A DNA stretch of 16,547 nt, taken from positions 1-16,547 of the forward strand of contig JBJHCF010000068.1 in the NCBI GenBank assembly GCA_050506795.1, in the 5' to 3' direction. Source of the DNA: Opitutia bacterium. GTDB taxonomy: Bacteria; Verrucomicrobiota; Verrucomicrobiia; Opitutales; T3Sed10-336. Below, piece after piece: positions 2-16,275 of the stretch (its first letter is position 1; every line of letters begins with the position of its first letter). Under the pieces are notes generated by a model. That model saw nothing but the letters and a program-made list of their open reading frames with translations. It did no database searches and had not been told where the DNA came from. The position numbers were made by a program, and so were the translations under genes.

Positions 2-820
2 CCACGCCCCAAGCGCCACTTTCCATTCGGCGTTCTTCGGTTCACTCATACAATTTTGAGGCTTCTTTTCCAGGACGTCCATCCCCATTTCCAACGTCTG
101 GCGCCACTGCAGTTCAACCAGTTCCTTTTGCAACTCTGCATTCGCCCTGGCCTCACCACTCTGTACTCGCCCCGCCAAATAAGCCTTTCCTTCCTCGCTG
201 CCCACAAACCATCCGCGGCACAATCGCGCGAATTCCTTCTCCCGCTTTTCCGGGGACTCTTCCATCACCCACTTCAAACGCCGATGGTAGGCGTTCATCC
301 CCGCCGCACTATCGCTTAAACCTCCCGCCTCATGCAGAAATTCAGCCGGAGTCAGGAATCCCGGCCGGCCCTTCCTGCGAAAGAACGCAGGGAAGCTGCT
401 CAGAGAATAGGACTTCAGATCGTCCAATTTCACGATTCCAGCCCTCACCGGATTCAGATGGATGTAATCCACCACCTGGAGCAACGCGGTCGAATCCTCC
501 AGAAGCAAAGCCTTGTAACGCCCTTGGAACACATGCCCACGCTCCCCGACAAACTTGTTGAAGCGGTTCGAAAAAACCGACTGCAAATACTGCATCCCTG
601 CCGAGAGATTCCCCACAGGCGTCTCCAGCGCCAGGTGATAATGATTACTCATCACCACATACCCGTGCAAGATCCACCCAAACCTCCGGCACGTCTGATA
701 CAGAATCTCGCGAAACGCCTCCCCGGTTCGATGAACCGCAAACAGGGCCTGCCGGTAATTACCCCGGTTCAACACGTGGTAGCGCGCATCTTCATACTCC
801 ACTCTCAAAGTCCTCGGCAT
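2..820 (-). CDS. REP-associated tyrosine transposase (RAYT)-like HUH/Y1 transposase, IS200/IS605 TnpA superfamily; 3' end runs off the window
   Basis: Translated by hand from ATG at 820: MPRTLRVEYEDARYHVLNRGNYRQALF...GYVVMSNHYHLALETPVGNLSAGMQYLQSVFSNRFNKFVGERGHVFQGRYKALL...VVDYIHLNPVRAG. It has the HUH motif (NHYH, H60/H62, nt 635-646), GHVFQGRY, and the catalytic-Tyr motif YIHLNPVRAG (Y119, nt 464-466). No stop codon before the window edge. Confidence 0.93.
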   Translation of the reverse strand, partial: MPRTLRVEYEDARYHVLNRGNYRQALFAVHRTGEAFREILYQTCRRFGWILHGYVVMSNHYHLALETPVGNLSAGMQYLQSVFSNRFNKFVGERGHVFQGRYKALLLEDSTALLQVVDYIHLNPVRAGIVKLDDLKSYSLSSFPAFFRRKGRPGFLTPAEFLHEAGGLSDSAAGMNAYHRRLKWVMEESPEKREKEFARLCRGWFVGSEEGKAYLAGRVQSGEARANAELQKELVELQWRQTLEMGMDVLEKKPQNCMSEPKNAEWKVALGAW

Positions 821-862
821 CACGCCTTTCTCCCAAACCGTTCGAATCCAGTCAATACCTAT

Positions 863-1195
863 TTACTTAGGCCTGACCCCTTTCGCCTCGCCTTCACAAC
901 GTGAACGCCTGCGGTGTTCACTCCCCATCAATCCTGACCTGCGTCCCGCTTGCCGACCGTAACGATAGATTCCTCGAAAATAACTTCCGGCGCCCTTAAA
1001 AAATGCTCCAGGGCCACTCAACGATGAAGCATTGAAAAAGCCTTCGTCGTAAAGTCCTGGAGCTCCCGAGAACAAACCGAGTCTATCCCGTCGATTCACC
1101 GGATTGCCACCGACATACCCATACAACCCCGGCCCTTCACGCAATAGCTCCGCCATAAAGAGCGGGTCCCTGTTCAACCAGTTACCTACAGCCAT
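863..1195 (-). pseudogene. Orphan Rhs C-terminal module (end of core + start of an alternative toxin tip), apparently truncated
   Basis: MAVGNWLNRDPLFMAELLREGPGLYGYVGGNPVNRRDRLGLF aligns without gaps to the full-length Rhs core end GRWLSRDPLFNAELLPEGPNLYGYAGGNPVNAVDLLGLF. The sequence after DxxGL is unrelated. There are no upstream YD repeats, and the frame ends in the RAYT-end motif. Confidence 0.85.
866..892 (-). mobile_element. Putative terminal/target motif of the RAYT element (AAAGGGGTCAGGCCTAAG on the minus strand) with an adjacent 5-bp tandem duplication
   Basis: The plus strand reads cttaggcctgacccc-tt-tcgcc-tcgcc. The motif lies ~50 bp upstream of the transposase ATG, where the orphan Rhs frame ends (...EGEAKGVRPK*). 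From recollection, GGGGTCAG-type motifs commonly flank this RAYT subgroup; the partner end is outside the window. Confidence 0.55.
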
Positions 1196-1214
1196 AGATG
1201 TGGCGAAGGTGACT

Positions 1215-1898
1215 TTATTCCGGGGATGATCGATCATTTTCCAAGGCTGAAGATTTCCAAATTGCCTCGATTTCGTCAACCACTCCCTTCAACCCATCGA
1301 CGATCGTCAGGTTTCCCACAATTCCGTCATTGGCCACCGGACCAAGCTCGTAGGGGCCTTCGATGTATTCCAGGCCTTTGTCGCTGACTGTCAGAACTCC
1401 CTGTTTCCATTTGATCGGGACGATCGGGGGATCGGCACAATTTAGGATATCCACAATCTTACGTCCTTCTCCCGAACCTGATTCGCCTTGGCAAAGCTTG
1501 ATATTCGGACATTCATTCCGGCCGAAGAAAATCTGGAATCGGAGTTTTCTCCCGGTAAAGGAACATTCATTGCTCCGAAATGAAACGAACGTCCTAACGT
1601 AAATATCGTCATTACCATTGGAATCCAGAGAAAATTCAATTATGCGCCCGTCGCTTTCACTTGAGAATTCTTCAATTTTCGATTGAGGATATTGATCACG
1701 TAAAGCATTCCGTCTCTGTTCAAAAAAAAGGTACATAAATACAACGATAAAGATAGGAGGTCCCAAAATCGGCCAAACAAAAAGCGCCTCCCTAAGTGAA
1801 GATACGCCACCTGTAGTACCTGGCGCTAACAGAAATATCGGCGGTAATGAAATAGCAGCGACAATGCTGATTCCTATAATCCGAATCAGAGGATTCAT
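1215..1898 (-). CDS. Putative immunity protein for the Rhs toxin; two N-terminal transmembrane helices followed by a soluble domain
   Basis: Lies ~40 bp downstream of the Rhs stop on the same strand. Low GC (e.g. 20/60 at 1681-1740). Two hydrophobic segments: IIGISIVAAISLPPIFLLA and LFVWPILGPPIFIVVFMYLFF. A purine-rich AAGGAAGAGAG precedes the start (ATG 1898; alternative TTG 1901). The immunity role is inferred from position only. Confidence 0.7.
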   Translation of the reverse strand: MNPLIRIIGISIVAAISLPPIFLLAPGTTGGVSSLREALFVWPILGPPIFIVVFMYLFFEQRRNALRDQYPQSKIEEFSSESDGRIIEFSLDSNGNDDIYVRTFVSFRSNECSFTGRKLRFQIFFGRNECPNIKLCQGESGSGEGRKIVDILNCADPPIVPIKWKQGVLTVSDKGLEYIEGPYELGPVANDGIVGNLTIVDGLKGVVDEIEAIWKSSALENDRSSPE

Positions 1899-1939
1899 CA
1901 AATATACCGCTCTCTTCCTTCACAAAACATCAATTTCTA

Positions 1940-4900
1940 CTAATGCCCGATGATACGATGCCGTTGATCCCACAGGGTCATTCCACCATAACCCACTCCA
2001 CCGAAAAACGTCGCCGGGGGGAATGATGCCGGATGCGCCATGGCTCCCTGAGCAAGATTGCTAATCCCCTGGCTGGTTTGCACCCCATAACGATAATACC
2101 CCCTCTGCGCCACTTGAGCCCCTATCTGCCCACTTCGGATCACACCGTAAATACCGGCTGATCCAGTATAATGCACCGCACTTCCGAAAGCCCGCGTTCC
2201 CCTCCACGCCATCGCCGCCCCGCGAATTAGATGCGCAGGATATGATGCCGGAATCAACAAGCTTGACAACAAAGCGGCGTCCTTCGCCATCTCCAATGCC
2301 TCCTCCGCCGCGCAACGACCGCGCTCCCCGCTCTTGCGAGCAAACTGTTGCGCCGGGGTCTCCCCGAACTCATTGGGCATGCGGTAAATGTCTCCCATCC
2401 TTGGCGTGCGTCCCGTCGCGTGCGACATGTCCAGGTAGTTGTTGACGGCCTGCTCGCTGAGAAACAGTCCCAACAAGTCCACGGCATTGACAGGGTTACC
2501 GCCCGCGTAACCGTATAGATTCGGTCCTTCGGGCAGCAATTCAGCGTTAAACAGCGGGTCCCGGCTCAACCACCGCCCCAAATCCGCATCATAGGCGCGG
2601 TACGGAGCCAAATGCAGGCCGCTCTTTTCGTGATAAAAATGCCCCGTAAATCGGAGATCCGCTTCGATTGTACTGTTTAACTCGTCCTCTCGCTCTACCC
2701 GCCCGTACGGATCGTACTTGTACCGCGCTACGAGCGCACCCTGGTCATCGGTCACTTCCCGGATACTCCCCAGGTGGTCGAAAGTGTAGAAGTAATCACC
2801 GACATTCGAACCGGAGACTATTTCGACTCCGTGGCTGTAGAAGCGTTTGACCGGATTGAACCCGCTCAAGTCCCGCTCTTCGGCGATAGACAGGCCGTCC
2901 CAGATAAAGCGGCGCCTGCTCTCCGTGGTGCCGGAGGCGTTCTTTTCGACGATCTGCACCCGGCGACCCAGCCCGTCGTAGGTAAATTCGCTCCTTGAGC
3001 TGTCCGGGTACTCAATGGCAATCAGCCTGTTAACGGCATCCCACTCGTACCCGGTCGTGCCGCCCGAATCGGTCCGGCTGAGCAGGTTCCCGTTCAGGTC
3101 GTAAGAAAGCGTCACCGTCCCTTCGTTGGCAATTTCCACGGAATAAATGTTCACCGTCTGAAGACCGTCCAGCGTCTCCGCTTCCACCGTCACCTGCTGC
3201 GTGCCCGAACTTAAGGGCACGTAAGCCTCAAAGCCCTGGAAGTTACGCATTTGCGCCTCCTCGTTCTCGACCCACACCTGGCCTGGCTGCGAGATTTCGC
3301 CCGCGAAGCGCACCAGACCGCTCCCCACACCTGTGAGTTGATTAAACTCGTTGTGAACGGCTTGGCGCAAGCCACCACCGTCGATCTGCTCGGAAACACG
3401 GTTCCCGGCCCGGTCGTACCCGTAGCCGAAACTGCTGATTACGTTCTGCTGATCGTCTTCAAGCACGGCGGATGTTAGTCGATACGCCGTATCATACGTG
3501 AATTCGTAGGTCTGTGAATCCAAATTGCTCCGCTCCTGCTTCCAGGAGTCGATGACCCCGTCGGAGTCGTACCCATATTCGTACGCTGAAAGGACCGACT
3601 GATCAGGGAAACGGTGTTCGATCCGCTCCAGACGGCGATCCTGGAGGTTGGGAAAGAAGCTAAAATGTGCTGTCTGGCCATCGTTCGGGTAGGTCACTTG
3701 CTCCAAATCGAACGTTTCATTGACATACTGGAAGCCAAAGGTTCCAAGATTGTTGGTTTCCTCAGCAAGACGGCCTTGAGTGTCGAAGACCCGGCTGACA
3801 GTATTCCCGGAACCCCCGATCGTTCTCTCCACCACTCGCGACAGGGAATCATACGTATAAACGATTGTGTCATTAGAAAATGGTCCATTAACCGTATGAA
3901 CCCTTCCGGCACCGGGCGCTTCCCCATCCACGGGAGGATGGGGATAGGAGGGATCGGAAAGCAACTCTGTCAAGGCATCTTCGATTGATTGGTTAGCGAG
4001 AGTCGCAACTTCCGAATGAGTTGGCGCGGTTTCGGATTCAGCTAAACCAACCAATGCCAGTGCATAAGGGGAACGATTTAACGGACGTTTATTCGGCATT
4101 TCGTACACGATCAACTTACTGCGGTTATTGCCATAAAATAAATGCTCCTCATTGTCCACACAAAAGACGCTTAGGAATATTGTACGGTCTTGCCCCGCCG
4201 ATGCCCAAAACGGATCGATTCCTGAGAACAATCGCGCCCATCCGAACCCAGTCGGCTGAGGGCCGATATGTTTGTTCCTATGGACCTGCTCCACAAAATC
4301 CATATCCGTTTGGTTCTCAAATTCATCAAAGAACTCCGTATATTTGGGCATAAGGAAATTAATCAACGGAATAAAGTCTGAAAACTCGCCTATATCTTGA
4401 TTCTCGTCAAATTCAGTATGTTCCGTAGGGTGGATTGGAAGCGCACTTGGAGGCTCCTCCAAAATAGGATTTTCCGAATCAAAGTCTTCGCCGAGCAAAA
4501 CGTGATATGCTTCCTGAAGTTCGATAAACGAGGGCCATTGCCCTGTTAACGTCAAGTAGATCTGAATAGTCTTGATCCGAGTATCATATTCCAGCCCCTC
4601 CATGACGCCCGACAGAAACGCGACCCGACTTTCGACAGTGCCATCCAATGCCGCCAATGCATTGTCGACTTCAAAACCAGTGGCCTTTCTGCCAAAAATA
4701 GCGACGTATGCTTGATTGACAAAATTCTGATCTCCGGAAACCTGATTCTCATCCATGTAAGGGTGGTAGGTGTACGAGGTCTGACCGATGCCACCGCTCA
4801 CGTTAGTCAACCGATTGACATCGGGGTCCCACGTATATGTTAAGGAATTCGTTGGATTGACGCTATTACTGTAGTTTATCGTATTAATATTCCCATCGAG

Positions 4901-7900
4901 GTAGTAGGTATATGATGTTATTTGTCCCAAAGCATCGGTCATTGAAACCAATCGACCATTGTCCGGATCATATTGATACACAGTCTCAGTCTGGTTCGGA
5001 TAAACTTTCTTCGTCAATCGTCCACTACGGTCATATTCCCATCGGGTCACATTTCCGTTGGGATCAATCACCCTTTCCAGATCTCCGCAAGTGCAGTAGT
5101 CATACTGGGTAATGTTTTCCTCGGAGTCGATCTCCACCATGAGTTGCCGATTCCCGTTGTACAAGTATGTAGTCATGCGCCCTTCGCGATCGACATAGGC
5201 CCCGACGTCGAGGCGATCATAGATCCACTCCTCAAAAGTGCTGTCCGGATATGACACACGGGTACGACGATCAAGATTGTCATATGAAAACTCCGTTGTG
5301 TGTCCACCCGCGTCAGTTATAGTCGCCACTCGACCCGCCGAGTCGTAGGTAAAGGTATAATCAGCACCAGCTGTCGGCCCTTTGATTTCGTAGAGATACC
5401 CATGGCCCGAAGGAGTATTGTTATTTGGATCGAAATCGAGGCGGTCGTCATAAATGTAGTCCGTCGTCTCGTTCAAGCTATTCGCAATTGAAAGAATTTG
5501 TCCTTCGTCATTGTACGTATAATACGTCTTTAGGCCGGCAGCGTCAACAACAAGACCCGGCAGATGATTGTCGTAATCGGTGAAAGATGAAAGAACCTTC
5601 CAGTTTCCACCGACTCGTTGCCTTACATGCAAGAGGTCGATTCCGTTACCGGCGTACTCGTACCGCGTCTCTCGCCCAACCGGATCAACAGACCGGATCT
5701 TCTGTCCTTGATCATTATACTCGTGCTGTACAATCTTCGATGTGCCGGATGAATCGATGGCTTGGGCGATCTTCGAGACAAGCCCGGTACCGTCAAATAG
5801 CCCAGGGTGCGACTGTCCCTGATAATTATAATAGATGCGATTCTCCAATTGTGGCTTCTCTGACTCGAGCCTACGCATGGAACGCGACCAATCTTCCGTA
5901 TGTAGCCATTGATAAATATGGGCCTTAGAGTAATCGAGAGTTTCCGTCCCACCCATCTCCTCAACGGCCCTCCTATCCCAATAGAACGTATTCCGGTAAA
6001 TCCGATAATGGTTCGTATCATTTTCGGTATAGATTCCAATTTTTCCGTCTAAGTCCGAAGTCACCGAATCCGCGGAATAGGGTTGTGGCAGTGGGAACTC
6101 ATTACTGTCTAGACCGTTCGCTTCATGACGATACTCCACCCGTTCCTTGAACCCGAGCGGATCCTCGACCTCCACCCAACGCACCGTATCATGTACTCCA
6201 TTGTCGCCAAGGCCATCCTCAAATTCATCCTGGCTGAATCGAGTAGTCCCGTATGGCGTGATCATTTCCTTGATAAAATCCCCGCCTCCGTCATACACAA
6301 ATTGTGTCTCGATACCCTCGGGGTCTATAATTCTCTCCAACCGACCGGTTGAGTCATATTCAAATTCTACCGTGCTATTTATTCCAAAGACATCCCGCCT
6401 CACCTTTGTTACCAAGCGAACATCTTCATGATCGTAAGAAAGTAATGTCTCGTTGCCCAATGAATCGGTGACCTTCCATAGAATATAGTGCCCTAACCAC
6501 TGATACCAGAAACGTATCGTATTTCCATAACGATCGATTCGAAACGTTCGAAGCAAACGGACTTTTCCGTCTACGGCGTCCGTTTGCTGATGAAATAGAT
6601 CTACGGTTCCATCAGGGTATATTAGCTCGTAATAGGTCGGCGCATGTCTTATAAGACGATTCCCGGAGTTCTTTTGTATTTCAAATTCCCCGCTTACTCC
6701 ATGTATATTTGTTTCCTGAAAATTCGTGAAGGTTTCCGCGCCTCCCCCCGGCATCGAATGCTTAACGTCCGCATACAAATCGCCGCTGTCATGGATGATC
6801 GCGGAAATCCAATTAGAAGTCCATTTTGGACCAAAGTTGGAATATTTGAACGTTGCAGGTTCATTCGCTTCGCGCTGGTTGTAACTTAGTCGAAGATCGA
6901 TAGAAGGTCCGTATGGAGTATTATACCTTATCGGAACATCAACAATATTCAAACTCACCGTGTGAAGGTGAATATTCCAAATCGGCATCCCAAATCCATC
7001 TCCGTCGCACCCAATTTTTTCATCAAGATCGCTCGTAGCGTCCTCGTCGTAACCGTACACATATCCTCGCCCCCAGATCCCGGCAGCGGTATCTATAGCA
7101 ACAGGTTCCCACCCCTCCGGTAGCTCAATATCTTCCGGAACCAGGAAATAGCCGCTTCCCTCCTCGTCAATCGCCTGTGCCGTCACATTCAGATTTTCTC
7201 CAAAAGTACCGTCCTCAACCAAAAATCGATCTCCCCGCTTCGTGATCAATGGACCGAAGTGATCGGACTTCCAGTGAATCACCGACGGAAGAATAATTTC
7301 CGAGCCGGGACGGCGCTTGGCCATGCGCATCGGAACACCAGCGTCCCGCGCCAAGGTATACACTTGCTTCAAGGAAAGGCCCTGCGGTGTGGACTCGGCA
7401 TTGAGAATTCGATCGCGGTTCGGGCGATCCGAGTCGATAACGCCATACACGCGATCCAATGCCATGGGACCGCACAAAAATGATATTTCCGGGTACGCCT
7501 TCATCATAGCCAATCCGATACGGGCACCCGCAAGCTTCTCAGTCGCGGAACCTCGAATATCGCGCCCTCGAACTTCCGAGAAAATCGCTTCCAATTGATC
7601 CGCACGCCCGAGTTTGGAATTAAGCAAAGCATACTCACTCACCGCCCGGTCCGCAATCGCCTTGGCTCGAATATGTTCGTCTTCTTTCGCATCGTCCCAC
7701 GCCAGTTTCCAGGATTCCAGTGCCTTCGTAAACAAACCGTCTCGATAATGGAGAGAACCCAGATTCAGGCGTAGCGAAGCGTTCCATGGCGACGTGGGAT
7801 AGTCATTTAAGTACGTCTCAATTCTCCCCGGTACGTCCGCCAAAGCAGCAGATTCCGCGCTAAGAATTTCCCAATAGAAGGCAGCTAGCGCAGTATTGTG

Positions 7901-8095
7901 CTCTTCTGTCGGCTCATGATCGCCAACAGGCCAGAGGAGTTCTGACAGAGCATGCACTTTGGTCAGAGCCTCAGTGGTTGGATTTTCGAATAAGTCAGGA
8001 GGAACGCGATCAAAGCGTGAATCTGCGCCAAGACCGACTTTTGCTGCGATACAGATGCCCCCAACGAAAAAAATCCGTTTTATTAAAGTCTTCAT
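1940..8095 (-). CDS. Rhs/YD-repeat polymorphic toxin with signal peptide, TPR-like region, C39-like cysteine peptidase, DUF6531-like pre-repeat region, Rhs-associated core and variable C-terminal tip
   Basis: 2051-aa ORF with many YD repeats (YDSTGRL, YDSAGRV, YDNLDRR, YDRSGRL, YDRAGNR, YDLNGNL, YDGLGRR). The core is DHLGSIREVTD...YDPYG...FTGHFYHEKSGLHLAPYRAYDADLGRWLSRDP...NLYGYAGGNPVNAVDLLGL. N-terminus MKTLIKRIFFVGGICIAAKVGLGA. Peptidase motifs LCGPMAL / VIHWKSDHF / FLVED. Confidence 0.96.
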   Translation of the reverse strand: MKTLIKRIFFVGGICIAAKVGLGADSRFDRVPPDLFENPTTEALTKVHALSELLWPVGDHEPTEEHNTALAAFYWEILSAESAALADVPGRIETYLNDYPTSPWNASLRLNLGSLHYRDGLFTKALESWKLAWDDAKEDEHIRAKAIADRAVSEYALLNSKLGRADQLEAIFSEVRGRDIRGSATEKLAGARIGLAMMKAYPEISFLCGPMALDRVYGVIDSDRPNRDRILNAESTPQGLSLKQVYTLARDAGVPMRMAKRRPGSEIILPSVIHWKSDHFGPLITKRGDRFLVEDGTFGENLNVTAQAIDEEGSGYFLVPEDIELPEGWEPVAIDTAAGIWGRGYVYGYDEDATSDLDEKIGCDGDGFGMPIWNIHLHTVSLNIVDVPIRYNTPYGPSIDLRLSYNQREANEPATFKYSNFGPKWTSNWISAIIHDSGDLYADVKHSMPGGGAETFTNFQETNIHGVSGEFEIQKNSGNRLIRHAPTYYELIYPDGTVDLFHQQTDAVDGKVRLLRTFRIDRYGNTIRFWYQWLGHYILWKVTDSLGNETLLSYDHEDVRLVTKVRRDVFGINSTVEFEYDSTGRLERIIDPEGIETQFVYDGGGDFIKEMITPYGTTRFSQDEFEDGLGDNGVHDTVRWVEVEDPLGFKERVEYRHEANGLDSNEFPLPQPYSADSVTSDLDGKIGIYTENDTNHYRIYRNTFYWDRRAVEEMGGTETLDYSKAHIYQWLHTEDWSRSMRRLESEKPQLENRIYYNYQGQSHPGLFDGTGLVSKIAQAIDSSGTSKIVQHEYNDQGQKIRSVDPVGRETRYEYAGNGIDLLHVRQRVGGNWKVLSSFTDYDNHLPGLVVDAAGLKTYYTYNDEGQILSIANSLNETTDYIYDDRLDFDPNNNTPSGHGYLYEIKGPTAGADYTFTYDSAGRVATITDAGGHTTEFSYDNLDRRTRVSYPDSTFEEWIYDRLDVGAYVDREGRMTTYLYNGNRQLMVEIDSEENITQYDYCTCGDLERVIDPNGNVTRWEYDRSGRLTKKVYPNQTETVYQYDPDNGRLVSMTDALGQITSYTYYLDGNINTINYSNSVNPTNSLTYTWDPDVNRLTNVSGGIGQTSYTYHPYMDENQVSGDQNFVNQAYVAIFGRKATGFEVDNALAALDGTVESRVAFLSGVMEGLEYDTRIKTIQIYLTLTGQWPSFIELQEAYHVLLGEDFDSENPILEEPPSALPIHPTEHTEFDENQDIGEFSDFIPLINFLMPKYTEFFDEFENQTDMDFVEQVHRNKHIGPQPTGFGWARLFSGIDPFWASAGQDRTIFLSVFCVDNEEHLFYGNNRSKLIVYEMPNKRPLNRSPYALALVGLAESETAPTHSEVATLANQSIEDALTELLSDPSYPHPPVDGEAPGAGRVHTVNGPFSNDTIVYTYDSLSRVVERTIGGSGNTVSRVFDTQGRLAEETNNLGTFGFQYVNETFDLEQVTYPNDGQTAHFSFFPNLQDRRLERIEHRFPDQSVLSAYEYGYDSDGVIDSWKQERSNLDSQTYEFTYDTAYRLTSAVLEDDQQNVISSFGYGYDRAGNRVSEQIDGGGLRQAVHNEFNQLTGVGSGLVRFAGEISQPGQVWVENEEAQMRNFQGFEAYVPLSSGTQQVTVEAETLDGLQTVNIYSVEIANEGTVTLSYDLNGNLLSRTDSGGTTGYEWDAVNRLIAIEYPDSSRSEFTYDGLGRRVQIVEKNASGTTESRRRFIWDGLSIAEERDLSGFNPVKRFYSHGVEIVSGSNVGDYFYTFDHLGSIREVTDDQGALVARYKYDPYGRVEREDELNSTIEADLRFTGHFYHEKSGLHLAPYRAYDADLGRWLSRDPLFNAELLPEGPNLYGYAGGNPVNAVDLLGLFLSEQAVNNYLDMSHATGRTPRMGDIYRMPNEFGETPAQQFARKSGERGRCAAEEALEMAKDAALLSSLLIPASYPAHLIRGAAMAWRGTRAFGSAVHYTGSAGIYGVIRSGQIGAQVAQRGYYRYGVQTSQGISNLAQGAMAHPASFPPATFFGGVGYGGMTLWDQRHRIIGH

Positions 8096-8123
8096 ACAAT
8101 CTTACTTCTCGTTCAGTTTAGTA

Positions 8124-9254
8124 TTAAGGTATTAAGTCCGCTTCTTTAGGTGAAGTCAGGGTAATGCTGGCTGGATTTCCGGATGGCGTGCTATCTATAA
8201 AAGTTGGATCCATTCCCAAACGAATCGCGATCGAGTCCCAGATTCCGTTTTGATTTGTATCCGGATTCAATGGATTGGTTCCGGCCAGATATTCTTCAAG
8301 ATTCGTTAATCCGTCACCGTCAGCGTCGTCGTCGGCATCGACATTGGTCGTTCCGAAATAGTACAACTTCCAGGAGTCCGGAATTCCGTCTCCGTCGGTA
8401 TCGATTTCGGATGTGCCTATGTATATTTCTACGATGTCGGCAGGTGACAAGGCGTGGTCATAGATCCTGGCCTCCCAGAAGTTTCCCCGGGCGCTCCAAT
8501 GATTACGACCCACGCTGGCATAACCGATAATCCATCGAGTAGATGTGTTCGAATGACTATAGTTCGCATTTATCGCATCGCTTCCAACCTCATGACCGTC
8601 AACATAGAAACGCACTTCTCCCTCGTCATAGTCAACAACCTGACAAAGGTGGTACCATTTATTCCAGTCCTGGTACTGAGGCGAGGAAATCACCGTACTG
8701 CCATCGACATCTTGATAAAAATGAGCGTAAAACCTGCCGTCCGCGTTCAGACGAATGCCAAACAACGAACCCTTCATTAAGATCGCAAAGTTGTTTGATG
8801 TGCCGTTTTCTCCTGGAAGATGATCCGGTTTAAACCAAATCGATAGACTGTGGGTTCCTTCGTTTAGATGGTCGAGGGCATAGACCGATGGGGTCCGAAC
8901 AAGGGACAAACCGTCAATCCTTAACGCCGTAACCCCATCGACCTGTTCGAAGCTTAGGTGGTCGCCAACCATATCGGCATGATGGTCGTTGATGGTCTCG
9001 TCCGGGATCAGGTCACCGTATGAATAGGTCAACATGTAGTGAACCATGCCGCCGTCGAGCGGGGGATTGTCGATGTGGTCGGCCTGCAAAATCGGTAACA
9101 GCGACCCCAGGACGAGAGCGAGCGCTCCACTCAGCCACAGTGAGGCGGCCCGGTGCGGGGAGGACCTCCGGTTGGGGCTATCGAGCGAAGGCTCGATGCC
9201 ACGTTGGATCCGATGCGGTGACACTGGATCGTGACAGGCTTGCTTCCTTTTCAT
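8124..9254 (-). CDS. Secreted LamG/concanavalin A-like domain protein with bacterial thrombospondin type-3 (DxDxDG) Ca-binding repeats
   Basis: Hydrophobic signal segment LWLSGALALVLGSLLPILQA. LamG motifs SLSIWFKP, KWYHLCQVVD...VRFYVDG, WEARIYDHALSPADI. Repeats DTDGDGIPDSW, DADGDGLTNLEEYLAGTNPLNPDTNQNGIWD. The start overlaps the upstream gene's stop (ATGA, 9251-9254). Confidence 0.88.
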   Translation of the reverse strand: MKRKQACHDPVSPHRIQRGIEPSLDSPNRRSSPHRAASLWLSGALALVLGSLLPILQADHIDNPPLDGGMVHYMLTYSYGDLIPDETINDHHADMVGDHLSFEQVDGVTALRIDGLSLVRTPSVYALDHLNEGTHSLSIWFKPDHLPGENGTSNNFAILMKGSLFGIRLNADGRFYAHFYQDVDGSTVISSPQYQDWNKWYHLCQVVDYDEGEVRFYVDGHEVGSDAINANYSHSNTSTRWIIGYASVGRNHWSARGNFWEARIYDHALSPADIVEIYIGTSEIDTDGDGIPDSWKLYYFGTTNVDADDDADGDGLTNLEEYLAGTNPLNPDTNQNGIWDSIAIRLGMDPTFIDSTPSGNPASITLTSPKEADLIP

Positions 9255-10333
9255 GGCTGTGTGGCGTTGACCGGTCGTGATCCGGTTGTTTCAAGGTTTC
9301 GATTGGCTCTCGCAATGGCTGGGGCCAAGTGCGGGTCGCCCAAGGCGGCCACACGTTCCAGGACGCGAATCGCCTCCGGCGATCCGTCCGATCCCAGGGC
9401 CGCGATGGAGGCCAGGCGAAGGGGATAACCCGCGGCCGGGTCCAAAGCCCATTCGGCGGCGGAATCGCGCGTCTGAGCGGACGCGGATCCGGCCGCAAGA
9501 TTCAAAGCGGTGACGCGGGCCAGGTCGCCCGCGGTTTCGTCCCGTACGATGGCGAGAGCCGCTTCGGCGACATTCAACCCGCTGGTTTCGTCAGGGGATC
9601 CGGATGCGGTCAGGTGATTCAACCCGATCAACGCGGTTCCGGCCAGGCTGGTGGCCCTTTCATCGAGCGCCGCCTTGAACGCGTCCAGTATCCTTCCCTT
9701 CTCCTCGTCGGACGCGGACTCGTGCCACACCCCCATGTGTTGCAACGCGTAATCCCGAACGGCTGCGTCCTGGTCCGAGTCTCCAAAGAGATCCATCATT
9801 ACCCCGGTCAGATCCTCGGGCGGGTTATCCTGATTTCGCAAGAGGTTGAGCAGATCGTTCTTTACCGCCCGATCGAGAACGCGCTCTTCCTCGGTATCGG
9901 GAGGCGCGGCGAGGAGGAAACGGTACAGCGCCTCGATCTCGAATGGAGACAGGTTCGTTCCCAGACCGCGTACCACCGCGCCGCGTTCGGCATACGTTCC
10001 TGAGGGATCCTCGATGGTCGCGAGCGCCCGAACGAAGGCGTCGTCAAGGACGAGCGCCTCCTCCGCGAGAGGGCGGCCGTGAGGCAATTCTCCGGAGGTT
10101 TCCTCGATTTCACGCGCCATGCCCGTCGATGCCCCGGAGGTATCGACGGAAGCACCGCGTCGAGATTCCTCCGATTCAGCTTCCCCGCGCACGATTGCCG
10201 TTTCGTCGGGTTCGGAAGGTTCGGGCCGGGATGGCGAGAGCAAGACCCGCATGGTCGCAACCAAAACAACGACAGCGGCCAATGCCAAAAGCCATTTCGC
10301 CCGGGAAGATCGAGAATGCGGTCGATGTTTCAT
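9251..10333 (-). CDS. Membrane-anchored HEAT-repeat (alpha-solenoid) protein
   Basis: Basic N-terminus, single TM (WLLALAAVVVLVATMRVLL) and acidic linker, followed by HEAT-like helices (VRDYALQHMG, LAGTALIGLNHL, ARVTALNLA, LRLASIAALG). ATG at 10333 was chosen; an in-frame TTG at 10351 is the alternative. Confidence 0.8.
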   Translation of the reverse strand: MKHRPHSRSSRAKWLLALAAVVVLVATMRVLLSPSRPEPSEPDETAIVRGEAESEESRRGASVDTSGASTGMAREIEETSGELPHGRPLAEEALVLDDAFVRALATIEDPSGTYAERGAVVRGLGTNLSPFEIEALYRFLLAAPPDTEEERVLDRAVKNDLLNLLRNQDNPPEDLTGVMMDLFGDSDQDAAVRDYALQHMGVWHESASDEEKGRILDAFKAALDERATSLAGTALIGLNHLTASGSPDETSGLNVAEAALAIVRDETAGDLARVTALNLAAGSASAQTRDSAAEWALDPAAGYPLRLASIAALGSDGSPEAIRVLERVAALGDPHLAPAIARANRNLETTGSRPVNATQP

Positions 10334-10354
10334 TCGTTCGTTATTTCCCAAACG

Positions 10355-13300
10355 TCATCGTACCCCGACGAGTTCGCCGTTCTGATAAACGTAAGTGCGG
10401 TGGCAGGAGGAGGTGATCGCCCAGGCGGGCATGATGAAACGGACGGTGGTCTGGCCGAGTTCGTCGAAATCCTCCGGCGTCAGGACCCGCTCGATGGTGC
10501 CGTCGTCAAAGACGACCCCGCCCACGAAAATCCGCAAATGCACCTCGATGTCCTCCGGTAGAGGACTGAGGATGGTGGTCATCTCCACCAACCGGCTGCC
10601 GTCGGGAAGGGCCCCGAGAACGCGAACGTTCGTTTCCCACGAGGAAAGAAGTCGAATTCCCTCGACTCCGACCGAATCCAGCACGGGTCCGTTTTCACCC
10701 AGGCGGGAGACGATCGTCCTCGGATCGTTATCCTCGGATCGAAAGCGCAGCCGGGGACTTCCCTGCTCCCCGAGGTTCTCGAATTGAAGACGGGGATCGG
10801 CCTCGTAAACGCCTGTGTATTGTCCGACATCATGCGAATTCCAATCCCGATGGCGATTGACCAGGGCGAGCGGGCGTTCCGGGAAGGTGAAGCCGTGGAC
10901 GTTGACACGGAGCGTGCCGGACGACTCGAATCCGTCGCCGGCGCGGTAAGTCCCTTCGATCAGGTACTCACCCGGTTCGGTGAAAGTGTAAACCAACGGG
11001 GAATCGGGAGTGGTCTCGAAGTGCGATTGCCGGCGAGTCGATTCCGGCATGGCGGATTCGTCGCGGATGGTGAGGGTGATGGAAGATTGCGAGTCATCGG
11101 CGGAAGCGCCGACGCCAAGGGCCGTGATAAGGAGGGAATCGCCCTTGCGCACGGTCATCTCGCCGCCTGCGAGAATGTCGTAGGGCACCCAGCGCGCGAG
11201 GAGACGATCTTCCGCGACACCGTTTTGCCAGGATACGGTGACGGCGTTGTCGGCCAAAGGCGCCAAGGGGACGTCGGCATGGTAACGGTATCCGGGGCCC
11301 GGTTTAGCCGGGAGCCTTATGGGGCCGAGGAAGGTTTCAAGATAGGCGTTCCAGTCCGCCGGATCGTGCGGGAGGAGGTGGGAATCGGGGGGAAGGACGG
11401 AAACATCGGCGGCAAGGGCGGAGCCTTGCCCTCCAGGGGGCAAATGCGGGGAATCCGCTGGAAAAACCTCGCGTCCGATGCGCATCATGCTCGGGTAGCG
11501 GCCTCGGCCTTCGATCGGCAATGGGGAGACGTGGGTGAGGATGGGTTCCCGGTTCGTGGTTCCTGGTTCCTGGTTGGCGTAGTGGAGCCGGTCTGTTCCG
11601 CTTTGGCGGGCGAGGCGGTCCTCCACCCAGTCCTTGATTCCGTTGCCATTGGAGTCGGGCCCTTCGACGCCGTGCAGGGCAATCGAATCCATCCGGAGGT
11701 TTGTCCCGGCGCGCGCACCGTCCCAGAGCACCCGAAGGCGATAGGTCCCTTCGGGCAGCCAGGGAGTGAAAGCGTACACCGACCCGGAATCCCCGTAAGC
11801 GCCCTCCAGCACCCGAGTGCCCAGGTATTCGTCATCCAGATACAGTTTCAAGTCGAAGGAAGACGCCGTCTCGATCGAGCGCCGGGCTTCTCCGCCCCGG
11901 ATCTCGACCAGGTACACATCCCCCCGGGGAACCTCGATATCGAACCCGATCCATCCCCTGCGATCCATACAGACGATGCCTTCGTCCGCACCGAACCAGC
12001 GCCCCACCCAATCGCTCGCTTCGGCCCCGGGGATCTCGACCCGCACATTCGTTTCGACGCCTACTTCACGCAACTCCTCAAGAGAGGGGGAACGCAACGC
12101 GAGGGCCGCGCTGTCGTGGTAACCGATGCCGTCCCACTCGCCCATCCAGGCAAAGGAATCGAAAGAGGGTTGGCCGTCGATGTCCTCGTAGAACCAATCG
12201 GCTTCGTCGTCGAGTTGAACGATCTCCAAATCGCTCACCCTGCCGCGCACATGGAAATCTTCGGAATGGGAAGAGACGAACATCCCGACCGGCACCGTCG
12301 CCGGCATCACCACGGAATCCTCCGACACAAGGACCCAATTTTCGCCGTCCCCGGACAGGTAATGCCGGAAGCGGTGCCCGGTGCGTCTGAGGCGAACATA
12401 CCGGTAAGCTTCGCTTCCGCCCGTTCCATGAGCAAAATCCAGGGCACCCTCACCTTGCTGCCGTCGAAAACGCGACCAGTAGGAAGACTTCCCCGAAAAC
12501 ACCGCGCTGTAGGAGGCCCCTTCGCTTAGGGAAGCCCGGGCCATCAAACCGTTCTGGGCCGGGAGACCGCGCTGCGTGGCGGCGGAGAAGTCCAAGGTTT
12601 CCGGGGCGCGCACCTTGGCGACGATTTCGAAGTTCCCCGTCAACTCCCGGTAAGCGAAGGTAAAGCCGTCGCGGTCCCCCGCGACTCCCCTTCCGCTGCC
12701 CAGGATGCGATATTCCTCTCCCACAACGTACGCATGAGGACCGGAAGCGCGCGTTCCGCCCACCTGCTCCAGATGCCATCCATCGAGGCCGTAGGCTTGG
12801 GGATAATCGCCGGCGTCCAGCACCCCGGTTCCCGCAAGTGCTTCATCGAAATCGCTCCAACCGTCGCCGTCGGTGTCGGCGAGGTGCGGATCGGTACCCA
12901 GCCGGTACTCTTCCAATACGCTCAAGCCGTAACCATGAAGATCGCTTCCGCCCAAACCGGAATCCAGCGGATCGAGACCGTACTTCAACGCCCACCAGTC
13001 CGGCACTCCGTCGCCGCTGGTGTCGGTCGCGTACACATCCAGTCCCAAGGCGCGCTTTTCCTCGTTGGTCAATCCGTCACCCGAAAAATCGAGTCCCTCC
13101 GGCTCGTGCTCCGAGACCACAATGTCATCGAGTAGCGACCCCCGCCCGCCGTCCAGACCCAGGCGGCTGAGAGTTCTCACCCCGGGATCCCTGAAGCCCA
13201 GATCGCGCAGACGCAAAACGCCGTCCACACAAAGCGACCAGCGACCCGTTTCGTAGTCGAGATGCACATCGACCCGTACCGCTTCGCCCCTCTCCACCCG

Positions 13301-15396: not shown

Positions 15397-16275
15397 TCAC
15401 ATGCCGGAGGACCGGGGGTGTAACGTCGAAAGCTCCAACAGCGTTCCCTGCCCGGCGGCGGGATCGGGATCGGCTCCCAGGAAACTCGCGGGCTCGAGAG
15501 CGGCGTCGGAGATCCTCACTTGATCGATCCAGCCATCGAAAAAATTCGAGAAACCGCCGCCCCACATTCCCCGCCCCACGACCCAGAGCGCGTCTTCGAC
15601 CGCGAACAACCCGTCAATGGGATGGGTACTCTGCAAGTGGTATTCGACATCGTCGGGACCCTTGAGCCAAAGAGCCATTTCCGTGGACGTGGCGGTGAGG
15701 GCGGCGCTGTACCATACGTCGGCTGCAAGCGGCTCCTGGCTCTGAATGAAAATAAATTCGCCCGCCCCGTCGGTGATCAACGCTTCGAGACGGCCTTCGA
15801 CCAGCTTAAGCGCGATGGGCTGCGCGCCATGCTCCTCGGGGTTGGGTTGACCGTCCTTGCCCAGGATCACCTGGACAGCCTGGCCGTCATAAGGTTTGAA
15901 CGAGGCCTCCAGTGTAATCGCACTGAAGACATGGGTGTTCAGCGGTTTGTCCTCACTGTACAGATCCCGATTACCGTGCCGGAAGTTCATTGAAAAATCA
16001 TTGGGCTCACCGGTCAGCGGAATCGAACCGAACGGCGTGTCCTCCGAGTAGGAAGGCGCCGTGTAATCCGCCCACGTACGTAGATGGTTTCCATTGCCCG
16101 AAGAATCCAAGACCACGTCCACCTGCGGGTGCTCGACCATGGACCCGGCCGGACCTTCGTCGAAGCGCCAGTGGGCGACCGTCTCGGCCGCGGCCGCGGG
16201 GAACATTGACAGTGTGACACTCGTTGCCAAGGCACAGACCAGCCAATGAGGGCAAGGGGGATTCGATGATTTCAT
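15397..16275 (-). CDS. Secreted LamG-like jelly-roll domain protein
   Basis: Signal peptide ending AAAA-E. Motifs VAHWRFDEG, DSSGNGNH, ITLEASFK, WYSAALT, FFDGWIDQVRISDAALEP. Confidence 0.9.
   Translation of the reverse strand: MKSSNPPCPHWLVCALATSVTLSMFPAAAAETVAHWRFDEGPAGSMVEHPQVDVVLDSSGNGNHLRTWADYTAPSYSEDTPFGSIPLTGEPNDFSMNFRHGNRDLYSEDKPLNTHVFSAITLEASFKPYDGQAVQVILGKDGQPNPEEHGAQPIALKLVEGRLEALITDGAGEFIFIQSQEPLAADVWYSAALTATSTEMALWLKGPDDVEYHLQSTHPIDGLFAVEDALWVVGRGMWGGGFSNFFDGWIDQVRISDAALEPASFLGADPDPAAGQGTLLELSTLHPRSSGM

Follow-up and report, generated by a model that had tools for sequence, protein, structure and literature searches.

The window, meaning the whole stretch of DNA that was analysed (16,547 nucleotides), carries on its minus strand a gene for an Rhs/YD-repeat toxin, with a gene for a LamG/TSP3 protein (here called the adaptor) directly upstream and a candidate immunity gene directly downstream. 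The features were as follows:

1215..1901, minus strand: candidate immunity gene, a 228-aa ORF immediately after the toxin end, named by position only
1940..8095, minus strand: Rhs/YD-repeat toxin gene, 2051 aa (PF05593, TIGR03696, fold match to Rhs shells)
1940..2464, minus strand: variable C-terminal toxin region, ~174 aa
2465..2716, minus strand: Rhs repeat-associated core (TIGR03696), ending in ...NPVNAVDLLGL, an autoproteolysis-type motif read from sequence
3131..3319, minus strand: Ig-like insert, strands B to G without A/A', residues 1593–1655 (Pfam coordinates and model)
3950..4732, minus strand: extra insertion of ~260 aa, residues ~1122–1382, missing from the 3 homologues compared
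6836..8095, minus strand: Rhs N-terminal region, residues 1–420, with a signal-peptide-like start (by eye) and a TPR-like and C39-peptidase-like region
8096..8123, minus strand: spacer of 28 nt from the adaptor stop codon to the Rhs start codon
8124..9254, minus strand: adaptor gene, LamG/TSP3, 376 aa (Laminin_G_3 at 129–274, TSP3 at 310–331, linker, tail)
8127..8177, minus strand: C-terminal tail NPASITLTSPKEADLIP, which is proposed to donate strands A and A'; the stop codon comes next

The 2051-aa Rhs protein was recognized by its YD repeats (PF05593, 167.3 bits in Pfam; TIGR01643, 116.2 bits in NCBIfam) and by the Rhs repeat-associated core at residues 1794–1877 (TIGR03696 in NCBIfam, 66.6 bits vs a cut-off of 32.5). 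A model of residues 1440–1890 (pLDDT 89.7) matched Rhs, Tc and teneurin shells; among the solved Rhs shells E values ranged from 4.6e-23 (7q97_A) to 8.5e-16. The sequence NPVNAVDLLGL is read as a DPxGL-type motif of putative autoproteolytic function and precedes the variable toxin region, in which 0 Pfam families were matched at E ≤ 1; the 228-aa ORF at 1215–1901 was likewise without a significant family match in profile scans. The N-terminal region was assigned via homology: relatives match PF03412 and TPR families, and homologues aligned over residues 30–430 of the window Rhs match PF03412 with 61.5 and 64.0 bits, while the Pfam scan of the window Rhs itself gave no PF03412 match at E ≤ 0.01. 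A cysteine and a histidine, as candidate catalytic residues, are visible by eye in its sequence. The extra insertion of ~260 aa gave a weak match to DUF4214 (E 0.024), below cut-off.

The adaptor was identified by Laminin_G_3 (PF13385, 76.2 bits) and one bacterial TSP3 repeat (PF18884, 31.9 bits); by eye, its N-terminus holds a hydrophobic stretch resembling a signal peptide. The adaptor and Rhs genes likely form one operon, and in related loci the tail gene and the Rhs gene commonly abut or overlap. The 16 C-terminal residues first reported (8127–8174) were confirmed as the end of the protein, with the stop codon directly after them. Across loci the tail follows the pattern D-T-x-P-x-I-x-L-x-x-P-x-x-A-v-x-x-P, then stop, and with a profile of the tails the window tail ranked 1st of the 19,972 C-termini of its own genome (20.2 bits, next 13.0).

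The earlier note had described the YD repeats as interrupted at nt ~3115–3325 by an Ig-like insert that fits the Ig pattern only from the second strand onward. The interruption was confirmed at 3131–3319, with YD repeats on both sides, and the insert comprises 63 residues (GLVRFAGE...YSVEI). It was matched by Pfam Glucodextran_B (PF09136) at profile positions 21–80 of 83 with 18.9 bits (E 0.0014), which falls under the curated cut-off of 27 bits; the inserts of 4 relatives scored above the cut-off (profile positions 21–80/81 or 16–78, 28.1–36.2 bits), and those of the Rhs proteins of L042 and G047 scored 29.5 and 36.7 bits. A six-frame scan of the window's genome returned the insert at PF09136 positions 20–80. 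In every Rhs insert scored, the match begins at position 16–22 of 83; in complete domains elsewhere in the same order of bacteria it begins at position 1–4. By these coordinates the second half of the claim holds as well.

When the insert was folded alone with AlphaFold, a confident six-stranded module was obtained (pLDDT 85.8); by this model and the Pfam coordinates together, the insert is therefore without A/A' and forms an incomplete sandwich, not one that is complete by itself. At the top of the structural matches of the insert model, each with Z 8.0, stood an S-layer Ig domain, 8cka_A (rmsd 2.3, 70 aligned), and residues 706–779 of glucodextranase 1ug9 (rmsd 2.7, 69 aligned, 25% identity); these matches support the predicted fold class only, a Z of about 8 being common among small sandwiches. 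That the first strand of 1ug9 is left unmatched is read from Pfam coordinates only; 1ug9 was not among the matches of a PDB sequence search with the complete domain P0243 from the same genome. In the 60 homologues inspected out of 120, strand B follows the preceding YD strand (N-x-L-N-Q-L-T) after only 5–7 residues, too few for A/A' to fit in cis. In a larger AlphaFold model a short YD strand (model residues 148–151) lies two residues ahead of strand B and might partly cover the strand B edge in cis.

The likeness of the tail to strands A/A' was scored with two profiles built without tail sequences, one from 5 complete domains and the other, the cis-domain profile, from nothing but the 24 residues that precede strand B in 600 complete tandem domains of 150 unrelated proteins (consensus ..LDTTPPVLTITSPADGAT..), against a background of 19,972 ORF C-termini of the window's genome. 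The window tail scored 9.0 bits with the 5-domain profile (reached by 0.03% of the 19,972) and 7.2 bits with the 600-domain profile (reached by 0.02%), so that the likeness of the neighbour's tail to the first strand, as originally noticed, is above chance under both. Among the four large proteins of the window the tail was the sole positive match to the A/A' profile, with which no A/A'-like segment was found within the Rhs protein itself. Across loci, 25 of 38 tails lay above the 99.9th percentile of the background with the 600-domain profile and 31 of 38 above the 95th; with the 5-domain profile, 23 of 38 were in the top 5%. Seven of the 38, all divergent subtypes, were without a score against the cis-domain profile. 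Because the tails of loci L051 onward were partly located by a motif pattern, the adjacency subset (the end of the neighbouring upstream ORF, n = 19) alone is free of this bias; of its tails, 15 reached the top 0.1% and all 19 the top 5%. A Pfam scan of the 38 tails, in pieces of 45 residues whose length falls short of what the scan's filters need, returned TSP3 and stray weak matches and no Glucodextran_B.

The tail gene was found to accompany the insert, as had been proposed: it lies upstream in 35 of 37 assessable insert-bearing Rhs loci, vs a convincing upstream tail in 0 of 40 loci whose Rhs is without the insert. In these 40 loci the best upstream C-terminus scored −1.8 to 3.3 bits, with one of 8.0 bits located 881 nt away; real tails score 7.8–22.9 bits. 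The two insert-bearing loci without a tail gene are L040, where a search with the tail profile found none nearby and none in the 95%-complete genome, and L056, whose Rhs gene comes second in a frameshifted tandem pair. The tail gene and the Rhs gene are not immediate neighbours in L038, L039, L041, L067 and L120. The Rhs proteins of L038, L039, L041 and L042 have an N-terminus of the CBM48/AMPK-CBM type, without TPR/C39, and retain both insert and tail gene; at the level of sequence, then, the tail gene tracks the insert independently of the type of Rhs N-terminal domain. The TPR/C39 N-terminus was also considered as receptor of the tail and was ruled out, given that the CBM48-type subfamily keeps tail and insert. 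The upstream proteins have little in common except the tail: the domains in 24 adaptors scanned were LamG, RCC1, Calx-beta, PKD, CBM20, pectinesterase/beta-helix, Ig/fn3, CHB_HEX_C, or none known. It is in this respect, with widely varying domains joined to a retained tail, that the adaptors can be called exchangeable.

We consider it probable that these parts form a split Ig domain completed in trans, which clips exchangeable binding proteins onto the Rhs cage. The donor-strand interpretation of the earlier note draws support from the insert fold, the co-occurrence and the adaptor diversity; the physical strand insertion, the docking geometry, the route of export and the adaptor's function are what we infer in the following scheme. 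Two genes of a single operon would share one domain of the BIg/glucodextranase-domain-B type: strands B to G would come from the Rhs shell, inserted between YD repeats, and the upstream-encoded protein would end with a linker and strands A/A'. Following export, the tail would slot into the unfinished sandwich by donor-strand complementation in trans and thereby fasten the upstream protein to the toxin cage, and the variable N-terminal part of the adaptor (here LamG and TSP3) would probably bind a ligand on a surface, that of the target cell or of the producer. No description of a strand-complementation mechanism for Rhs was found in literature searches, which covered the literature in part; within the same partial coverage, Rhs and donor strand occurred together in one paper only, a general review of secreted-protein prediction (PMC8047123).

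For complex prediction, Rhs residues 1440–1890 (451 residues) were combined with the last 45 adaptor residues in 3 runs with 3 controls. The ipSAE was 0.52, 0.51 and 0.52 in the three runs, with 0.00 for the best control, contact agreement was at least 88% and partner pLDDT at least 57. The mark used for such scores is reached by 116 of 157 solved complexes and by 2 of 215 mismatched pairs; at scores of 0.60 or less, the mark was reached by only 18 of the 157 solved complexes and by both mismatched pairs that passed. The prediction that the earlier note had suggested thus backs the pairing itself (0.52 vs 0.00) as weak support, with a score, given without contacts, that does not place the tail on the 451-residue fragment. 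The tail could bind the shell or the artificial cut edge of the fragment.

It is unlikely, on our estimate, that the tail docks elsewhere on the cage (on the shell surface or plug), the insert being complete in function, the YD strand covering its edge in cis, and the A/A' likeness of the tail reflecting descent from a truncated BIg domain. Such docking would agree with a complex prediction that shows no interface, with an insert that is modelled confidently without the tail and has a YD strand two residues ahead of strand B, and with the presence of the insert in L040 without any tail gene; it leaves unexplained, however, the A/A' pattern, the DTxxP linker and the invariant proline across distant subfamilies, and why inserts always miss exactly the A/A' profile positions. 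The persistence of the tail gene beside CBM48-type Rhs without TPR/C39 speaks against a second alternative, which we regard as quite improbable: the tail would be a C-terminal sorting or processing signal for a shared export/anchoring machinery or for the Rhs C39-like peptidase, and tail and insert would be linked via that machinery. The tail is indeed short, C-terminal and conserved, the proteins have signal-peptide-like starts (by eye) and many Rhs relatives carry an N-terminal C39-like peptidase domain; a sorting signal, however, would mark many proteins, whereas the window's genome has one tail carrier (1st of 19,972), and the complex fragment without the N-terminal domain still scored 0.52 vs 0.00 for controls. 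Chance likeness of a proline-rich, beta-prone C-terminus beside an Rhs with an ordinary Ig-like insert is scarcely credible, for although the motif is short and a loose pattern matches 1.5% of ORF C-termini (301/19,978), it would have to account for 35 of 37 loci with the insert vs 0 convincing of 40 without, and for a window tail in the top 0.02–0.03% under two profiles built without tail sequences.

For the split Ig domain completed in trans, a broader formulation can be given, towards which the balance tips slightly: a BIg domain split at the A'-B loop would serve as plug and socket, by which Sec-exported Rhs cages recruit interchangeable receptor-binding proteins via a C-terminal strand of ~17 residues, in hosts among the Verrucomicrobiota, Planctomycetota and Acidobacteriota. 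The Verrucomicrobiota concerned include MAGs labelled Akkermansia muciniphila. How Rhs toxins that do not depend on type VI secretion are targeted and attached is a largely open question, and, if the formulation is true, a conserved socket on the cage and a conserved plug on diverse lectin-like proteins would answer it in concrete, testable form for a large clade, one that includes gut Akkermansia and many soil and water Verrucomicrobiota. Both ends of such a toxin would be polymorphic, since aiming module and toxin tip could each be swapped; strand complementation would occur with reversed polarity and for one-to-one coupling rather than fibre assembly; and a natural pair of short peptide and domain would be at hand for study as a means of coupling proteins. 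In annotation, the tail motif flags otherwise unrelated 'hypothetical' surface proteins as Rhs partners.

Among known systems, the Rhs effectors of type VI secretion systems with solved cages (RhsA 7q97, RhsP 8h8a/8h8b, Salmonella bongori Rhs 8qjb-d, Tse5 8cp6, Tse15 8uxt, Tre23-Rhs 7pq5) share with the window Rhs the YD shell, a core with a DPxGL-type end, a variable toxin and a small downstream gene. Their sequences align to the window Rhs only after the insert (query position 186 onward, the insert being at 128–190). Unlike them, the window Rhs begins with a signal-peptide-like stretch and carries a TPR/C39-like N-terminal region, and its mounting is proposed to occur by a separately encoded strand; PAAR, VgrG or Eag-type mounting parts were not found in the 6–7 window ORFs scanned (Pfam, NCBIfam). 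In Tc (ABC) toxins a YD cocoon encloses the toxin and is joined non-covalently to a separately encoded receptor-binding component, TcA, the TcB beta-propeller docking on the pentameric TcA translocation channel. The Rhs model matches the fold of Tc toxins (4o9x and 6h6e); unlike theirs, the joint proposed here would be a strand of ~17 residues in an Ig-like insert, with small, diverse, lectin-like partners and no sign of a channel, and Pfam/NCBIfam scans of the window proteins returned no TcA-like translocator or TcB propeller families.

Subunits of chaperone-usher pili lack the C-terminal strand G, receive an N-terminal extension as donor, need a chaperone and an usher, and assemble into a polymer. 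Here, in contrast, A/A' are missing, the proposed donor is a C-terminal tail and a one-to-one pair is proposed; no chaperone or usher gene was noticed among the window ORFs in the Pfam/NCBIfam scans. The pair would accordingly be said to work like donor-strand complementation, as an analogy, and is not filed as a member of that class. An incomplete Ig-like fold completed by the strand of another polypeptide is described for chaperone-usher and type V pili and for archaeal cannulae (PMC6615685, PMC4654587, 10.1101/2024.12.30.630787).

Bacterial teneurin-like proteins (PDB 9ifo) are surface-associated YD-shell toxins that have immunity genes and carry BIG domains within one protein; the BIG, TTR, FN-plug and NHL parts lie N-terminally and in cis (PMC13018210). 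A term search of the main text of that paper found no mention of Ig-like inserts, C39 or Verrucomicrobia. The domain type of the insert is also that of giant adhesins (SiiE 2yn5, Bap 7dm0) and of glucodextranase domain B (1ug9). A profile of the insert matched 21,470 representative proteins (E ≤ 0.001), those at the top holding as many as 73 repeats. This number is dominated by giant tandem-repeat adhesins and is not a measure of Rhs family size; the matches served as a source of complete domains. In tandem BIg adhesins the sequence of linker and A strand in cis, ..DTTPPxIxIxSPxxG.., resembles the tails; their domains are complete in one chain, whereas here the break lies in the A'-B loop and the parts are in two genes.

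All genes relevant here lie on the minus strand of the window and were assigned from family matches as follows.

1940-8095, minus strand: Rhs protein of 2051 aa (RHS repeats PF05593, 167.3 bits)
Rhs residues 1794-1877, minus strand: Rhs repeat-associated core (TIGR03696, 66.6 bits), terminating in ...NPVNAVDLLGL
3131-3319, minus strand: Ig-like insert, Rhs residues 1593-1655, flanked on both sides by YD repeats
8124-9254, minus strand: adaptor of 376 aa (Laminin_G_3, 76.2 bits, and one bacterial TSP3 repeat), C-terminus ...NPASITLTSPKEADLIP

The Rhs protein carries the defining features of the Rhs/YD toxin family and is a member of it; the ~174 residues after its core gave no family match. Its residues 1-430 are homologous to relatives with TPR and Peptidase_C39 matches, and PF03412 was not matched in the window's own Rhs at E 0.01. 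The adaptor end and the Rhs start are separated by 28 bases, both N-termini are hydrophobic and signal-peptide-like by eye, and among named relatives the nearest come from Opitutales and other Verrucomicrobiota. The YD shell also contains an insertion of ~260 residues (Rhs ~1122-1382, nt 3950-4732, minus strand) which is absent from the compared homologues P0005, P0010 and P0016 and has DUF4214 as its best match (E 0.024, weak and sub-threshold). Downstream of Rhs and its candidate immunity gene, a 138-aa ORF (863-1279, minus strand) includes 33 residues (nt 1094-1192) with 76% identity to the final part of the Rhs core and resembles an orphaned Rhs tip, a putative displaced toxin cassette. 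At 2-823 (minus strand) an IS200-like Y1 transposase is encoded. The region upstream of the adaptor (9251-15289 and 15397-16275, minus strand) encodes a 366-aa protein without family, a protein of 1644 aa with TSP3-like repeats and another LamG protein (292 aa), and these three may be part of the same surface system.

Beyond this Rhs, the insert is seen in an alignment of 120 homologues, and the 60 of them listed share the consensus N-x-L-N-Q-L-T, 5-7 residues, G-G-x-V-R-F-x-G ... V-x-V-N-G ... F ... G-x-N ... A-x-D-x-x-G-N. Glucodextran_B (PF09136, 83 profile positions) was matched above cut-off in four relatives, in each case starting late (profile 21-80, 21-81, 16-78 and 21-81), and in the window at 21-80 with 18.9 bits, under the 27-bit cut-off; a six-frame scan gave 20-80 for the window's insert and, in another genome's Rhs, 22-81. 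Glucodextran_B domains that are complete, from the same genome and order, begin at profile position 1-4. The insert is in the fold class of bacterial Ig-like (BIg)/glucodextranase-B domains, yet it does not pass as a complete domain, and the earlier note is right, for the clade as a whole, that it follows the Ig pattern starting at the second strand, given the late profile starts in the window and its relatives. Sequence alignment with solved Rhs structures begins just after the insert.

For the missing strands A and A', a complete domain within one chain (cis), from a protein of 5707 aa in the same genome, reads ..PPPPTIVSPLDGSLFSDPQ-VTVSGTAEPG... The C-terminal tail of the adaptor is P-x-(x)-I-x-L-x-S-P-x-x-A-x-L-x-P, then stop, and the insert opens with ..G-L-V-R-F-A-G-E-I-S-Q-P-G; since the tail ends at A-x-L-x-P and the insert starts at G-L-V-R-F, the break falls in the A'-B loop. 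Tails were scored with A/A' profiles containing no tail sequence, against a background of the 19,972 ORF C-termini of the window's genome. With a five-domain profile, the window tail scored 9.0 bits, reached by 0.03% of background, and 23/38 tails of related loci were in the top 5%. A larger profile was derived from the best 150 protein-library matches to the insert profile, which are giant tandem-repeat proteins; 1021 complete domains were located in them, and the 24 residues preceding strand B were taken from 600 distinct domains (consensus ..VTLDTTPPVLTITSPADGATTN.., including the D-T-T-x-P linker common to many tails). The window tail then scored 7.2 bits (0.02% of background), 25 of the 38 tails exceeded the 99.9th percentile and 31 the 95th, and tails picked solely as the end of an Rhs-adjacent ORF (n = 19) fell into the top 0.1% in 15 cases and into the top 5% in all 19; seven tails of divergent subtypes (e.g. 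..GFSIWLSTPSGFNGIP, ..LGLRVIIVRPRSNSSIP) did not score. Over four large window proteins the tail was the sole positive match to the A/A' profile, and the window Rhs itself gave none. The resemblance of the neighbour's tail to a first strand that then stops, also claimed earlier, is borne out by a background rank of 0.02-0.03% under two tail-free profiles. Metagenome LamG/TSP3 proteins (P0165, P0167, P0168, P0174, P0184, P0188) end in ..L(R/N)(V/L)(L/R)(I/V)LTP(M/L)E, a shorter form of the tail resembling that of locus L044 (..IGLKVHTP).

Co-occurrence of tail gene and insert was analysed in related Rhs loci. A search with the Rhs N-terminus in 201 genomes of the order gave 10 loci; the tail motif ends the upstream ORF in 10/10, and the full Rhs, obtained for six, contains the insert in 6/6. 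A 181-residue insert-region search in 401 genomes of the phylum gave 15 insert-spanning matches and several on flanking repeats only. After omission of L037, which is cut by a contig end, the tail gene is present in 13 of the 14 assessable loci (adjacent in 10, separated by a ~190-aa gene in 3), and L040 bears the insert without a tail gene. A further 74 loci came from scanning a single genome for each species, with the tail gene at 15 of the 16 new insert-bearing Rhs genes whose start lies in the locus; L056 alone lacks it and is the second member of a frameshifted tandem Rhs pair. With duplicates of earlier loci (L057, L061, L063) counted once, the tail gene is present in 35/37 insert-bearing loci, which are mutually related, so that these counts are not independent events. 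It was absent from all 6 insert-less control loci, and 34 further insert-less loci gave no convincing tail (best upstream C-terminus -1.1 to 3.3 bits on the tail profile vs 7.8-22.9 for real tails); one insert-less locus reached 8.0 bits with a C-terminus 881 nt away and dissimilar by eye. The proposal that the tail gene accompanies only insert-bearing Rhs genes therefore largely held. In the window's genome, which has a single Rhs of this type, the adaptor tail ranked first of the 19,972 C-termini, with 20.2 bits against 13.0 for the runner-up. In five loci (L038, L039, L041, L067, L120) the tail gene and Rhs are not immediate neighbours. Loci span Verrucomicrobiota, Planctomycetota and Acidobacteriota as labelled, including records titled Akkermansia muciniphila MAGs (L088, L091); L088 has an insert-bearing Rhs and a 210-aa upstream protein ending in ..ELRVKIASPRKSSLLP, and the module is therefore present in a culturable gut commensal. 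Short Rhs ORFs in L052 and L054 (651 and 357 aa) start in the shell shortly before the insert, after other toxin/immunity-like ORFs, and may be orphan C-terminal cassettes including the insert.

Four loci (L038, L039, L041, L042) encode Rhs proteins with an N-terminus of CBM48/AMPK-CBM type in place of the TPR/C39 region. All four keep the insert (each is in the alignment; L042 matches profile 16-81 with 29.5 bits) and the tail gene (..WPEITILWPQDGQEL and similar), so the tail goes with the shell that bears the insert, independently of the N-terminal domain; with this subfamily, the C39-like peptidase or TPR drops out as likely tail receptor. Its loci have a conserved ~190-aa gene between tail gene and Rhs (L038 5091-5672, L039 4690-5244, L041 a 196-aa ORF) ending in ..NGTFGxQPIQAxxxGxxxTLLTVxA... 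Another conserved gene, two places upstream of Rhs in some of the related loci (L021 3-842, L026 2-778, L035 a 270-aa ORF), ends in ..INFWKVE or ..IYFWKIE... In the Rhs of L045 (genome G238), which lacks both the insert and a tail gene, residues 1263-1354 give a DUF642-like match that is weak (E 0.0019, 18.4 bits, cut-off 27), late in the shell and ~50 residues before the RHS motif; this may be a cis binding domain at a nearby, non-identical site.

Adaptors range from 185 to >2000 residues and contain between them LamG, RCC1 propellers, Calx-beta, PKD, CBM20, pectinesterase/beta-helix, Ig/fn3, CHB_HEX_C or no known domain. Common to them is the C-terminal tail, often after an element of TSP3-like type (D-G-D-G-x-x-D ... 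P-L-D-P) followed by a short linker. The adaptor had been called exchangeable, and its domains do vary from locus to locus with the tail constant, a pattern that would be expected of exchangeable binding modules with a common connector.

In a model of Rhs 1440-1890 (pLDDT 89.7), which matches solved Rhs, Tc and teneurin shells, the YD sheet carries the insert as a separate strand cluster, with a short YD strand two residues ahead of strand B that might shield part of its edge. Modelled alone (77 residues, 31-row alignment), the insert has six strands (pLDDT 85.8), and its best match is the S-layer Ig domain 8cka_A (Z 8.0, rmsd 2.3, 70 aligned), together with glucodextranase 1ug9 residues 706-779 (Z 8.0, rmsd 2.7, 69 aligned, 25% identity); such Z values are common for small sandwiches and indicate a predicted fold class only. 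For complex prediction, the 451-residue Rhs fragment and the last 45 adaptor residues were supplied as alignments. The score mark was reached by 116/157 solved complexes and 2/215 mismatched pairs; scores past the mark of at most 0.60 came from only 18/157 solved complexes and from both passing mismatches. Three runs gave 0.52, 0.51 and 0.52 vs 0.00 for the best of three controls, with contact agreement of at least 88% and partner pLDDT of at least 57, and the result was graded as weak support for the complex suggested in the earlier note.

Completion in trans of a split BIg domain is the most likely mechanism, and we consider it probable. The tail would supply the cage-borne B-G module with strands A and A', the completed domain would form a tight one-to-one joint, and the variable part of the adaptor (here LamG and the calcium-binding TSP3 repeat) would attach to a ligand on a surface. 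The sequences show complementary profile coverage, tail-A/A' homology, conserved linkage, independence of the N-terminal domain and adaptor diversity. We infer strand insertion, export of both proteins and an adaptor that either directs the toxin to targets or holds it on the producer. Sequence and comparative evidence support this interpretation, and structural prediction does so weakly. Counted against it are the exceptions L040 and L056, the five non-adjacent loci, the seven non-scoring tails, the window's Pfam score below cut-off and the confident modelling of the insert without the tail. The complex score is consistent with binding of the tail to the Rhs fragment, without placing the tail on it; docking elsewhere on the cage, with the likeness to precisely the absent strands as a relic, is unlikely. 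A sorting or processing signal at the end of these adaptors, which accompany the insert-bearing shell, is less probable still, and chance resemblance is barely credible. The observation itself is confirmed and lies far beyond chance.

In the literature searched, with partial coverage and including passages of PMC13018210, PMC3482391 and PMC8920140, no description of the split domain or of tail-bearing Rhs partners was found. PMC3482391 describes polymorphic toxins with cis-fused adhesion domains, Laminin-G among them, and suggests anchoring, which fits the role proposed for the separate adaptor. In its working, the proposed joint is comparable to donor-strand complementation in pili but is no member of that system: another strand is the missing one, the donor sits at the opposite chain end, and no chaperone, usher or fibre would take part. 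Tc toxins follow a similar logic of a cocoon and a separately encoded targeting component, with different parts.
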